Counted from the first letter of the stretch, positions 10,492-22,592 are shown. The stretch is DNA of 22,618 bases from a virus (IMGVR_UViG_2700989162_000004:1-22618); one strand, 5' to 3'. Notes: a model not told the origin generated them from the letters alone. A program made the numbers and translations.

Positions 10492-10567
10492 TGGTGCTGG
10501 TTAACGGACTTGAACCGCTACCCATTCGCTTACAAGGCGACTGCTCTACCATTGGAGCTAAACCAGC
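10492..10567 (-). tRNA. tRNA-Thr (anticodon UGU), CCA encoded
   Basis: Minus strand GCTGGTT...GCTC-CAATGGTA-GAGC...loop CTTGTAA...GGTTCAAGTCC...AACCAGC-A-CCA; 7-bp acceptor stem, T-loop signature, anticodon loop CUUGUAA; one A-G mismatch in the anticodon stem. Confidence 0.7.
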
Positions 10568-10572
10568 ATGTT

Positions 10573-10647
10573 TGGCGGGACAGCGTGGACTCGAACCACG
10601 ATAAGAAGGTTAACAGCCTTCCGTAATGACCTTTATACGACTGACCC
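10573..10647 (-). tRNA. tRNA-Asn (anticodon GUU), CCA encoded
   Basis: Minus strand GGGTCAG...anticodon arm GAAGG-CTGTTAA-CCTTC...T-arm CGTGG-TTCGAGT-CCACG...CTGTCCC-G-CCA; one T-T mismatch in the acceptor stem and a weak D-stem. Confidence 0.65.
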
Positions 10648-18052: not shown

Positions 18053-18358
18053 ATGGTAACCATTGTCTGGAAAGAATCCAAAGGTACGGCAAAAAGCCGC
18101 TACAAAGCTCGCAGAGCAGAACTTATTGCCGAGCGACGCAGTAATGAAGCACTGGCGCGAAAAATTGCGCTAAAGCTCTCTGGTTGCGTCAGAGCAGACA
18201 AAGCAGCATCGCTAGGATGCCTTTGCTGCAAGAAGAAAGAAGAAGTCGTTCGAAAAAATAGAAGTATTTATTACAAAGATTCAAACCCATTAGGAAACAA
18301 AATACATGCAGTCCAAAAAATAAAATTGTACAGTAAACTACCGTACGGTGCTTATTGA
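18053..18358 (+). CDS. N: Antiterminator N, phage-21-type arginine-rich motif
   Basis: From the internal Met: MVTIVWKESKGTAKSRYKARRAELIAERR...; GTAKSRYKARRAELIAERR matches the phage 21 N arginine-rich motif as I recall it; AGGAG Shine-Dalgarno; the ORF-track start at 18023 is probably too far upstream; C-terminal half AT-rich. Confidence 0.75.
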   Translation: MVTIVWKESKGTAKSRYKARRAELIAERRSNEALARKIALKLSGCVRADKAASLGCLCCKKKEEVVRKNRSIYYKDSNPLGNKIHAVQKIKLYSKLPYGAY

Positions 18359-18360
18359 GT

Positions 18361-18699
18361 ATGCTTATGGTGAAAAAGACTATTTATGTTAATCCTGACC
18401 GCGGACAAAACAGAAAAGTATCTGATAGAGGTCTTACATCTCGAGACAGGAGGAGAATAGCGAGATGGGAAAAAAGGATAGCATATGCATTAAAAAACGG
18501 TGTAACACCTGGATTTAATGCTATAGATGATGGCCCTGAATATAAGATTAATGAAGACCCAATGGACAAAGTTGACAAAGCATTAGCAACACCATTTCCT
18601 CGCGATGTCGAAAAAATTGAAGATGAAAAATATGAGGATGTAATGCACAGAGTTGTTAATCACGCTCACCAACGAAATCCAAATAAAAAATGGTCATAG
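18361..18699 (+). CDS. Hypothetical protein after N, AT-rich
   Basis: ORF overlaps or abuts the N stop (the track uses TTG at 18355; first ATG is 18361); basic N-terminus, acidic C-terminus; followed directly by an intrinsic terminator. Confidence 0.5.
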   Translation: MLMVKKTIYVNPDRGQNRKVSDRGLTSRDRRRIARWEKRIAYALKNGVTPGFNAIDDGPEYKINEDPMDKVDKALATPFPRDVEKIEDEKYEDVMHRVVNHAHQRNPNKKWS

Positions 18700-19182: not shown

Positions 19183-19551
19183 ATGTCAAACATCAAAAAA
19201 TACATCATTGATTACGACTGGAAAGCATCAATAGAAATTGAAATCGACCATGACGTAATGACAGAGGAAAAACTTCACCAGATTAATAATTTCTGGTCAG
19301 ACTCTGAACACCGACTCAATAAACACGGCTCTGTATTAAATGCTGTATTAATCATGCTGGCGCAACATGCTCTGCTTATAGCAATTTCAAGCGACTTAAA
19401 TGCATATGGTGTTGTGTGTGAGTTCGACTGGAATGATGGAAATGGTCAGGAAGGATGGCCTCCAATGGATGGTAGCGAAGGAATAAGAATTACCGATATC
19501 GATACATCAGGAATATTTGATTCAGATGATATGACTATCAAAGCCGTCTGA
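19183..19551 (+). CDS. Hypothetical strongly acidic protein in the early-left operon
   Basis: 122-aa ORF with GAGGA Shine-Dalgarno; many D/E and few K/R; occupies the ral/sieB-equivalent position between N and cIII. Confidence 0.6.
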   Translation: MSNIKKYIIDYDWKASIEIEIDHDVMTEEKLHQINNFWSDSEHRLNKHGSVLNAVLIMLAQHALLIAISSDLNAYGVVCEFDWNDGNGQEGWPPMDGSEGIRITDIDTSGIFDSDDMTIKAV

Positions 19552-19627: not shown

Positions 19628-19798
19628 ATGCAACAGTTCGCTATTGCAGGGGCGGCATCGGTTCGCCCTTTCAACCCGATTTTATCGGTACAGCATTCAC
19701 GAAAAAACATTTTAACCGGAGCAGACTTTAAACAACCAAGAATGAAAAGTTTGCTCGAAAAGCTTTGGGATATTTTGAAACAACAAGGCCGTCCATGA
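19628..19798 (+). CDS. cIII: CIII-like protein (absent from the ORF track, below its length cutoff)
   Basis: Manual translation MQQFAIAGAASVRPFNPILSVQHSRKNILTGADFKQPRMKSLLEKLWDILKQQGRP (56 aa); MQ-AIAG N-terminus and L-DIL-Q-G-P C-terminus resemble lambda CIII from memory; AAGGAG Shine-Dalgarno. Confidence 0.65.
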   Translation: MQQFAIAGAASVRPFNPILSVQHSRKNILTGADFKQPRMKSLLEKLWDILKQQGRP

Positions 19799-19953
19799 GT
19801 TTTACAGATAACTGGTCAGACGAAGAATTCATTCGTCATATGAAAGAATTAATCGGTAACGAAGGAGATATTCATGTCACTTGCAACCACAGTGAAGGAG
19901 AGCAGGTTACAGAGACGCATGTACACGCAGAAAGCTCTCTGGTATCGCCATAA
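19795..19953 (+). CDS. Small hypothetical protein at the kil-equivalent position
   Basis: 52-aa ORF MSFTDNWSDEEF... whose ATG overlaps the cIII stop (ATGA). Confidence 0.45.
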   Translation: MSFTDNWSDEEFIRHMKELIGNEGDIHVTCNHSEGEQVTETHVHAESSLVSP

Positions 19954-20054
19954 TGGCGACCGCGAAGGAATGCGGGTATGCCTTAATTTGTCCCGAGTCG
20001 AAGTATTAAATCAGCGTTATTTTCTTGGGCCGTGTCCATTCTGAGATCAAACAT

Positions 20055-20660
20055 ATGAGCAAAGAATTTTATGCAAGGCTGGCAGCCATTCAGGAGAATC
20101 TGAACGCGCCAAAGAATCAGTACAACTCATTCGGTAAATATAAATACAGAAGCTGCGAAGACATTCTTGAAGGCGTTAAGCCGTTACTGAATGGCCTGTT
20201 TTTATCAATCAGCGATGAAGTTGTGTTGATTGGTGATCGGTATTACGTGAAAGCAACGGCAACTATTACTGATGGCGAAAACAGTCATACAGCAACCGCT
20301 CTTGCACGAGAGGAAGAAAGCAAGAAAGGAATGGATTCTGCACAAGTTACGGGAGCTACAAGCTCTTATGCACGCAAGTATTGCCTCAATGGTTTGTTCG
20401 GCATTGATGATGCGAAAGATGCAGATACCGACGAGCATAAACATCAGCAGAACGCAGCAGCAAAGCAATCAAAACCATCACCTACACCTGAACAGGTTCT
20501 AAAAGCATTCACTGACGCAGCATTGCAGAAAAACACCGTGGAAGAGCTTAAACAGGCGTTCGCCAAAGCGTGGAAGATGCTCGAAGGCACACCGGAGCAG
20601 CACAAAGCGCAGGACGTTTACAACATCAGACGAGACGAATTAGAAGGAGCGGCTGCTTAA
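20055..20660 (+). CDS. erf: Erf single-strand annealing recombinase (P22 Erf-like)
   Basis: From the internal Met: MSKEFYARLAAIQENLNAPKNQYNSFGKYKYRSCEDILEGVKP..., close to P22 Erf from memory; the ORF-track start at 20025 is probably too far upstream. Confidence 0.9.
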   Translation: MSKEFYARLAAIQENLNAPKNQYNSFGKYKYRSCEDILEGVKPLLNGLFLSISDEVVLIGDRYYVKATATITDGENSHTATALAREEESKKGMDSAQVTGATSSYARKYCLNGLFGIDDAKDADTDEHKHQQNAAAKQSKPSPTPEQVLKAFTDAALQKNTVEELKQAFAKAWKMLEGTPEQHKAQDVYNIRRDELEGAAA

Positions 20661-21043
20661 TGGCACATTCGATTACTGTAAGACTAAACAAGCCCGCAAG
20701 AGAGTTTCAGGCCGGGGAAAATATCGGATTCAACATCCGTGCTGGCGTTCAGTATTACGATCGCCAGACAAAAAAGAAAGAATGGACAAACTACAGCGCC
20801 GTTGTATTTGCCAAGCCGGGAGCGCAAGCGGATTACTACCGTAGTGTTCTTGTTGAAGGTGGCATTGTAGAAATTACCGGAGAAAACATCAGGGTTGATG
20901 TTTATCAGGGGCAAAATGGTCAATCAATCACTCTTGAATTACTGAATGCAAAGATTGGATTTGCAACCTCAGGAAACAGCCAACAGCAGCAAAGTAGCAA
21001 TCATCAAAATCATCCTGAATACGACGATTCAATTCCCTTCTAA
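20660..21043 (+). CDS. ssb: Single-stranded DNA-binding protein (phage SSB)
   Basis: 127-aa ORF with ATG overlapping the erf stop and AGGAG upstream; Q-rich linker and C-terminal tail ...YDDSIPF like the E. coli SSB DDDIPF tail. Confidence 0.7.
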   Translation: MAHSITVRLNKPAREFQAGENIGFNIRAGVQYYDRQTKKKEWTNYSAVVFAKPGAQADYYRSVLVEGGIVEITGENIRVDVYQGQNGQSITLELLNAKIGFATSGNSQQQQSSNHQNHPEYDDSIPF

Positions 21044-21066
21044 AGTAGCAACATAAGGATTCCATT

Positions 21067-21360
21067 ATGCCAGCGCCTCTGTATGGTGCGGATGCCCCGC
21101 GCCGCTGTTCCGGCAATTCCGTATCGGAGGTGCTGGATAAATTCAGAAAAAACTACGATCGGATAATGTCGCTACCGCAGGAAACGAAAGAGGAAAAGGA
21201 ATTTCGCCACTGTATATGGCTTGCAGAGAAAGAAGAACGCGAGCGAATTTACCAGACATCAATCCGACCATTCCGCAAAGCCACATATACCCACTTCCCT
21301 GAAATTGACCCGCGCCTGCGTAATTACCGCTCACGCTATGGCGCTATCAGTAATGACTGA
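21067..21360 (+). CDS. abc2: Abc2-like anti-RecBCD protein (tentative)
   Basis: 97-aa [34 protein letters not shown]...; same length as P22 Abc2 as I recall it and correct position after erf. Confidence 0.5.
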
Positions 21361-21370
21361 GGAATTTACC

Positions 21371-21535
21371 ATGAGAGGACTTGCATACAACCCCGGCATT
21401 CTTCCGGCAGAAATGATTATTCGCCAACGCGTAAAGCCAATGCCATCGAGAGAGGAATTGCTTAAGAGAAATTCTTTTCCATCAGTGAATCAAAACAAGT
21501 ATCTGAATGCGATGTTGCGGAGTGGGAAGAAATGA
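21371..21535 (+). CDS. Small hypothetical protein
   Basis: 54-aa ORF from the Met of [15 protein letters not shown]...; stop overlaps the next start (ATGA). Confidence 0.4.
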
Positions 21536-22014
21536 AACAAATGACACTAATTGAGATGGATGGTTTTCTGAAAGGTAAATGCATCCCACGAGATTTAAAG
21601 GTTAACGAAACAAACGCTGAATATCTTGTGCGTAAGTTCGGTGAACTTGAATCAAAACTAGAAACGGCGTTGCGGGAGTGTCGTTCTGCTGGAATCACGA
21701 TTGATAACCTTGAGGCTAAATGCGCGAAGATGGCTGCTGAAAATACCTCACTTAAGCAATCTGAGAAGGAATTTAATGACTTTTGTCGTGAGGAGTTTAG
21801 CGAATGGGAAGATGATGTTACTGAAACTCCAGCCACCGATGCTTTCCTGGCTGAAGTACGGGCGCAGGGGGTAGAGATGTACGCAGATAACCTCGACAAC
21901 GGAGCAGACGACGCAGAACGAGGTGGTTTTGATTATGCCGTTAAGTTTCTACGCAGTGAAGCATCTAGTGTACGTTTGTTCGCCGACCAGCTTCGCAAAG
22001 GAGGCAACCAGTGA
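21532..22014 (+). CDS. Hypothetical acidic protein
   Basis: 160-aa ORF, translationally coupled on both sides; no motif I recognise. Confidence 0.55.
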
Positions 22015-22592
22015 GCAAGATTGACTATCAGGCACTGCGTGAGGCGGCAGAAAAAGCAACGTGTGGTGAGTGGTCGCTCGAATATGGAGAGGGCCAATTT
22101 GATGGTGATGATGCGCTAATTCATCGTGACGTTGTTGGATATCTTCCCATTTGCAGAATTGAAGGAGCGCATCCTGAAAGCGGTTTCGATGAAGATTTCC
22201 AAATAGAACAGCAGGCCAATGCTGAATTCATCGCCGCAGCCAATCCAGCTACCGTCTTGGCGCTGCTGGATGAGCTGGAAAGAAACCAGCAATACATCAA
22301 ACGCCGTGACCAGGAGAACGAGGAGATTGCGTTAACGGTAGGGAAGCTGCGTGTTGAGCTGGAAGGCAAAGACAAGCTGATTGCAGAGCTTGGAAAACAA
22401 TGCGCCGAATGGGAGCGAAAAGCATTAAGCAACTTTGAAGAGTGTGCTGCGATGGCTGAACGTATCGAAGAGTTGCAGACAAAATCTGCACCAGATTCGT
22501 TTGGCATCATCGGTGAAAATATTCGAACACAGGATAATCGAATAACGTCAGTGGATTTGCCCCTATATTTCCAGACATCTGTTATCACTTAA
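22011..22592 (+). CDS. Ead/Ea22-like protein
   Basis: 193-aa ORF starting [22 protein letters not shown]..., typical of the prophage Ead/Ea22-like family as I recall it; GTG start preceded by AGGAGG and overlapping the upstream stop. Confidence 0.65.
   Translation: MSKIDYQALREAAEKATCGEWSLEYGEGQFDGDDALIHRDVVGYLPICRIEGAHPESGFDEDFQIEQQANAEFIAAANPATVLALLDELERNQQYIKRRDQENEEIALTVGKLRVELEGKDKLIAELGKQCAEWERKALSNFEECAAMAERIEELQTKSAPDSFGIIGENIRTQDNRITSVDLPLYFQTSVIT

Follow-up and report, generated by a model that had tools for sequence, protein, structure and literature searches.

The recombination (Rec) modules of lambdoid phages are built from combinations of genes for an SSB, a nuclease, an annealing protein and an anti-RecBCD function, as set out in a 2025 survey of 325 such phages (PMC12315714). 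In that survey the HK97 gp40 protein was named "SSB-1b", its AF3 fold was reported to resemble bacterial SSBs despite identities of 15% or less, and SSBs of the SSB-1b type were stated to be without experimental study (PMC12315714). The corresponding locus of HK75 and HK446 has the order Gp33-Erf-Gp31-Abc2, in which Gp31 and Gp33 were termed uncharacterized (bioRxiv 10.64898/2026.07.10.737580).

Phage P22 carries arf-erf-abc1-abc2 at the same operon position as the module described here. In P22, abc1 lies in the slot occupied here by the SSB gene; the two encoded proteins are unrelated, and the small genes 5' of erf also differ. Because P22 runs Erf without a phage SSB, Erf in general does not need one. 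In HK620 an SSB (HkaK, "SSB-2") is encoded, as here, directly after an annealing protein and before abc2, but its partner is Sak4, whereas the partner here is Erf. The HK620 SSB was described in the survey as no homologue of bacterial SSB (PMC12315714). Its tip, NDYPPF, is host-like and required for partner stimulation, the last six residues of the protein being needed to stimulate Sak4 (PMC5928155).

The window analysed here is the whole stretch of 22,618 nucleotides of a viral contig (IMGVR_UViG_2700989162_000004). It represents a mosaic lambdoid phage that was closest overall to HK620 (63% covered) and HK022 (39%), at ~97% identity. Its recombination block is of the type found in HK97, HK446, HK633 and mEp213. 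As in HK97 and HK446, erf and abc2 flank an SSB-1b gene, with the same gene families in the same order. The SSB was 99% identical to HK446 Gp31 and 94.5% identical to HK97 gp40. There is essentially no difference from the HK97-type module; the backbone around it is an HK620/HK022-like mosaic. The block is read here as an HK97-type lambdoid Rec module within the early-left operon, with Abc2, SSB and Erf acting together as proposed below, and this reading is given a probability of about 85%.

The assignments of the three genes hold, and the module is an ordinary one that has already been catalogued. Since the 2025 survey and the 2026 preprint already cover the gene and the locus, the assignments are correct yet not new. 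The additions made here are modest: the conservation of the SSB tip across the family, the equivalents of W54 and F60 of E. coli SSB, the replacement by SSB-1 at the coupled site, and the pairing with Erf, Sak4 and RecT. The accessible part of the survey contained no mention of the tail motif or of its conservation (PMC12315714).

The three genes were all present on the + strand at exactly the coordinates given in the first-pass annotation, and the C-terminus reported there for the middle protein, ...YDDSIPF, was also exact (Table 1). The three ORFs are not a product of chance, because the family E-values were 2e-44 (ERF), 1.8e-28 (phrog_44) and 5.8e-63 (Anti-RecBCD_p2). The TAA of erf (20658-20660) shares its final A with the ATG of ssb (20660-20662), forming TAATG at 20658-20662, and a strong Shine-Dalgarno sequence, GAAGGAG at 20643-20649 within the 3' end of erf, serves the ssb start. 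This overlap and the internal Shine-Dalgarno fit the translational coupling that had been claimed for erf and the next gene, and the layout is kept in relatives: the one-base overlap was retained in all 80 of the closest viral contigs, where erf, ssb and abc2 also had identical order and spacing.

The abc2 gene is preceded by its own Shine-Dalgarno sequence, TAAGGA. A promoter/terminator scan revealed no promoter-like sites on the + strand within the three-gene block, and the sole terminator-like hairpin in the block (20180-20195, + strand) was weak, with six pairs, three of them G-C. An Rfam scan of the window found no RNA elements in the recombination module; two tRNAs were its only matches. 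In total, 556 of 5,426 complete E. coli genomes (~10%) had at least 80% of the three-gene block covered. The NCBI pipeline label for the middle gene is "hypothetical protein". Disrupted copies were also seen: in one contig (L264, 830-2498) an insertion of ~1 kb interrupted erf around residue 144-149, and in two related prophages (L020 and L057, 3606-3984) ssb was frameshifted with erf and abc2 intact.

Table 1. Features of the recombination module and of the surrounding window.
Feature	Position	Strand	Size or residues	Remarks
tRNA-Thr(UGU)	10492-10567	-		
tRNA-Asn(GUU)	10573-10647	-		
Nun-like transcription termination factor	18355-18699	+		head of early-left region; phrog_5632, E 4.8e-71
DUF2528 protein	19183-19551	+		Pfam/PHROG scans
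cIII-like protein	19628-19798	+		Pfam/PHROG scans
HK446/HK75 Gp33 homologue	19795-19953	+	52 aa	small acidic; same operon; phrog_2123
ORF just 5' of erf	19874-20044	+	56 aa	phrog_1723 ("recombinase"), 8e-36
erf	20055-20660	+	201 aa	Erf-family single-strand annealing protein
Coupling junction	20643-20662	+		GAAGGAG inside erf 3' end, then TAATG
ssb, HK97 gp40 family ("SSB-1b")	20660-21043	+	127 aa	ends ...HPEYDDSIPF
SSB OB domain (predicted)	20660-20968	+	aa 1-103	
SSB linker (predicted disordered)	20969-21016	+	aa 104-119	Q/S/N-rich
SSB acidic tip	21017-21040	+	aa 120-127	EYDDSIPF
abc2	21067-21360	+	97 aa	anti-RecBCD protein 2
DUF2737 protein, HK97 gp38 family	21371-21535	+	54 aa	PF10930, E 3.4e-32
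phrog_614 protein	21532-22014	+		Pfam/PHROG scans
Ead/Ea22-like protein	22011-22592	+		Pfam/PHROG scans

Besides the three genes of the block, the early-left operon comprises a Nun-like gene, cIII, ea genes and small accessory genes. The ORF at its head matched the Nun-like family and not N, which fits the HK022-like backbone of the window. Terminator-like hairpins were located between the Nun-like gene and the Rec genes at 18698, 18989, 19135 and 19575. A kil gene, present in HK633 and HK446, could not be recognised in the window between cIII and the Gp33-like ORF. Downstream, the DUF2737 gene accompanies abc2 in most relatives and reached a coverage of 80% or more in 79 of 80 related loci.

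Two small ORFs that overlap by 80 nt in different frames precede erf, and both are conserved in HK446. The 52-aa ORF (MSFTDNWSDEEFIRHM...) was 87% identical to HK446_033 (Gp33). Its motif WSDEEFI resembles FSDEEFI of P22 Arf, and despite the shared SDEEFI there was no BLAST alignment between the two proteins. The "recombinase" label that PHROGs gives to the family of this ORF looks like a mislabel. P22 Arf was also considered as a homologue of the 56-aa ORF, and no alignment was obtained. The 56-aa ORF ends in ...FLGPCPF, and a 62-aa relative that stands alone before erf in two contigs (L093 and L094) ends in ...NPSELPF; these Pro-Phe endings resemble the SSB tip.

Gp33 by itself is reported to make the P2 defence protein OLD toxic, and it has been proposed as a new RecBCD inhibitor or manipulator (bioRxiv 10.64898/2026.07.10.737580). 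Thr(UGU) tRNAs encoded by phages, HK446 among them, were reported to counteract the cleavage of tRNAs by OLD (bioRxiv 10.64898/2026.07.10.737580). With its Gp33 homologue and its tRNA-Thr, the phage of the window may thus possess a trigger of OLD together with a possible means of countering it.

The first gene of the block encodes Erf, as had been annotated. Its product matched Pfam PF04404 (ERF) at 151.6 bits (E 2.1e-44) against a cut-off of 25 bits, with residues 5-143 aligned to model positions 1-146 of 153, and matched phrog_155 at 1.6e-57. Identity to P22 Erf was 75% overall, 93% in the N-terminal 125 aa and ~46% in the C-terminal region (residues 126-201). The ATG agrees with the start of P22 Erf, MSKEFYARLA. 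Homology to P22 Erf suggests that the protein forms a ring oligomer with ssDNA annealing activity; a sequence search found no solved structure for Erf. Among Erf relatives (alignment A2) the first ~150 residues were nearly invariant and the last ~50 fell into two types, the window Erf having a type different from that of P22.

The third gene had been called a probable Abc2. The 97-aa protein matched Pfam PF11043 (Anti-RecBCD_p2) over its full length (1-97 of 97; 209.6 bits), matched the Abc2 chain of PDB 8B1T at E 2.7e-57, and aligned end-to-end with P22 Abc2 with 90 of 97 residues identical (93%). The RecC-binding helical region of Abc2 comprises residues 3-66, and Pro68 occupies the active site of the host prolyl isomerase PpiB (PMC9836394). 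Residues 1-66 differed from P22 Abc2 by just three substitutions (D10A, L32R, A65S), and Pro68 was retained. Because of this near-identity "probable" is too weak, and the gene is named Abc2 here. The conserved regions suggest that the window protein would bind RecC. Abc2 binds RecC and is thought to make RecBCD resect DNA for Erf instead of RecA (PMC9836394).

The 127-aa product of the middle gene matched no Pfam family at E <= 0.01 and fell below the TIGR00621 threshold (16.4 bits against a cut-off of 53.95 bits). PDB sequence and profile searches gave marginal SSB matches (E 0.04 and 0.18). Since curated models and PDB sequence searches were weak, fold prediction and profile-profile comparison were needed. 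The phrog_44 family that the protein matched is annotated "single strand DNA binding protein". A database search returned 320 relatives, almost all of them labelled "hypothetical protein"; the UniRef name of one was "Bacteriophage HK97 gp40". A possible homology of the middle gene to P22 Abc1 was rejected, as the two did not align.

An alignment of 40 diverse gp40-family members (alignment A1) contained a conserved domain of ~103 residues, a low-complexity linker of variable length and a conserved tip. AlphaFold2 applied to this alignment gave a confident model (mean pLDDT 82.6; block means of 79-96 across residues 1-100). The predicted topology was that of an OB fold (beta1-3 / helix / beta4-5): strands within residues 3-51, a helix at 55-63, and strands within 69-103. 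Confidence dropped from residue ~107, with residues 107-127 below a pLDDT of 50 except for 122-123. All 42 Foldseek matches to the PDB at E <= 1e-3 were bacterial, mitochondrial or apicoplast SSBs or PriB; the best had an E-value of 3.7e-5, and TM values were 0.4-0.55. Structural alignments to solved SSBs had identities of only ~7-21%.

Remote homology was also found at the profile level. Alignment A1 was compared by hhalign with a profile of canonical SSBs taken from genes 3' of erf in other genomes (A3), giving 94.3% probability and an E-value of 9.5e-8 over 65 columns that span the beta3-helix-beta4-beta5 part only, so that W40 and W88 of E. coli SSB fall outside. Within these columns W42 was paired with W54 of E. 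coli SSB and F50 with F60. In E. coli SSB, W54 and F60 are ssDNA-stacking residues. Across the gp40 family (alignment A1) W42 was conserved in at least 90% of sequences and F50 was invariant; further invariant aromatics were F16, F24, Y33 and Y45.

The OB fold expected of the SSB candidate was thus found in the AlphaFold2 barrel, in Foldseek matches that were all SSB or PriB, and in the 94% hhalign probability. On its predicted fold, its architecture and its remote homology, the 127-aa protein can be placed in the SSB fold class as a divergent member, although curated sequence models failed to recognise it. We infer that it binds ssDNA, and likewise its oligomeric state. Like E. coli SSB and phage SSB-1 (Sf6/ES18 type), it combines an OB fold, a disordered linker and an acidic tip ending in IPF; its linker has 16 aa as against roughly 60 in those proteins, and its tip has Ser where E. 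coli SSB has the third Asp.

The likeness of the tail to that of E. coli SSB (DFDDDIPF), pointed out in the first-pass annotation, is real and is conserved in the gp40 family. The positions that matter in the E. coli SSB tip are D-D at -6/-5 and I-P-F at -3 to -1, and the window tip agrees with the host tip at all of these. In 83 full-length homologues the C-terminal seven positions followed the pattern [FWY]-D-D-[SDE]-[IP]-P-F, basic residues were absent from the final eight positions of every sequence, and the linker before the tip was 7-72 aa long and Q/S/P/N-rich. An HMM search of 1.84 billion representatives showed the gp40 family to be small (215 clusters at 50% identity) and did not reach canonical SSBs. 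An acidic-xPF tip was present in 71 of 115 full-length family representatives, and the commonest tip was DDDIPF, which is the host tip. Because it is kept family-wide, the host-like tip is a conserved trait that has been selected, not a chance occurrence in a single sequence.

Scans of viral contigs with the window Erf, P22 Erf and the SSB alignment recovered chiefly near-identical E. coli prophages. In six related contigs (L093-L097 and L099), the gene after erf, at the same position, encoded a canonical bacterial-type SSB with the C-terminus ...DFDDDIPF. The erf stop and the ssb start abutted or overlapped in these contigs, and the Erf C-terminal region was 85% identical to that of the window. 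Two SSBs that are dissimilar in sequence and related in structure thus swap at one coupled locus, which is the strongest argument available here for the functional equivalence of SSB-1b and canonical SSB. Two of the six contigs had an extra gene between the canonical ssb and a diverged 94-aa gene (L093, 4080-4628; L099, 4092-4571). As judged from sequence, the extra gene looks like a DnaQ-type exonuclease in L093 and a Cys/His-rich HNH-type protein in L099, and the 94-aa gene looks Abc2-like.

Members of the gp40 family were also found beside other annealing proteins. A Leminorella prophage had one immediately 3' of a Sak4-like AAA_24 protein, so that SSB-1b relatives share the type of partner known for the HK620 SSB; a Vibrio phage had one (ending in ...WDDEPPF) after RecT and a PD-(D/E)XK-type nuclease; and a metagenomic contig had one after Erf and a DnaQ-like exonuclease. 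In a species-wide Erf scan, erf was often followed in Firmicutes, Bacteroidota and Neisseria loci by an SSB with a D/E-rich LPF, IPF or VPF end, and otherwise usually by a nuclease. The picture suggested by these gene neighbourhoods is that the gp40-family SSB would be a generic cofactor accompanying annealing proteins of several families.

The two types of Erf C-terminus were tallied against their neighbours. In total, 127 window-type Erf loci had SSB-1b and Abc2, six had SSB-1, and there was one distinct P22-type locus. The P22-type C-terminus occurred with Abc1 and no phage SSB; the window type occurred with an IPF-tipped SSB-1b or SSB-1, and kept its IPF-tipped SSB whether the upstream gene was P22 arf or the HK97-type genes. 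The N-terminal annealing domain stayed ~92% identical with either type of C-terminus. The C-terminal domain of Red-beta reportedly binds the SSB tip. A tentative idea, held with low confidence, is that the last ~50 residues of Erf are a swappable partner-reading domain, of which the window type binds the SSB tip. Linkage alone could account for the pattern. Because the tally is unbalanced, with one P22-type locus, and because the domain adjoins the partner gene, no covariation is claimed beyond physical linkage.

In the mechanism proposed for the module, Abc2 would bind RecC of the host RecBCD, and phage DNA ends would then be resected without the normal Chi/RecA outcome. The OB domain of the phage SSB would coat the exposed single strand, and the flexible linker would present the acidic ...DDSIPF tip, which would recruit or stimulate Erf and would probably also dock host proteins that recognise the tip of the host SSB. 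Erf would anneal complementary strands, and coupled translation would produce Erf and its SSB together. The partners of the tip are suggested by analogy. Annealing proteins of the RecT type need the C-terminal 7 residues of their partner SSB (bioRxiv 10.1101/2020.04.14.041095), and the HK620 SSB is the best experimental model for how the tail of the window SSB works. In the literature search, no Erf-family protein was found to interact with the tip of an SSB. By these analogies, recruitment of the phage annealing protein is a better supported role for the tail than competition with the host.

Such competition had been the proposal of the first-pass annotation. The tip would act mainly as a decoy, pulling ExoI, RecQ, RecO, PriA, Pol III chi and Ung off the host SSB or onto phage ssDNA and so rewiring repair or replication. 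The match to the host tip at the key positions and its conservation in the family, with exactly DDDIPF in many members, agree with this proposal, but they do not tell competition apart from plain use of the same docking site. The replacement of the gene by a canonical SSB whose tail is exactly that of the host fits an extra supply of SSB better, and the phenotype of tail deletion in the HK620 SSB is the lost stimulation of a phage recombinase (PMC5928155). A decoy role is considered unlikely.

It is less probable still that the protein serves chiefly in phage DNA replication (theta or rolling-circle), its adjacency to erf being mere operon organisation. SSBs act generally in replication, and the host primosome or Pol III chi might conceivably be drawn in by the tip. 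The gene, however, lies in the early-left Rec module, away from the O/P replication genes, and across unrelated phages it adjoins an annealing protein from one of three families. Such pairing is the pattern reported for recombination-linked SSBs (PMC5928155, PMC12315714). That the middle protein is an accessory RecBCD modulator, and not an ssDNA-binding protein, would suit its position between erf and abc2, where P22 has abc1, but is very improbable given that it lacks similarity to Abc1, that its fold, linker and tip are all of SSB type, that a canonical SSB substitutes for it, and that gp40-family genes also occur in modules with no recognisable abc2 (the Sak4-like and RecT loci).

Overall, the fold, the profile homology, the tip, the interchange with canonical SSB and the pairing with Erf, Sak4 or RecT justify naming the middle gene a phage SSB. 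The value of this is chiefly one of annotation: the gene has no Pfam family and is present in about a tenth of the complete E. coli genomes searched. If Erf reads the SSB tail, the pair could serve as a matched recombineering set. If the last ~50 residues of Erf are indeed the domain that reads the partner, each Erf would be matched to its SSB, with the tail determining specificity and not serving as a generic mimic of the host.
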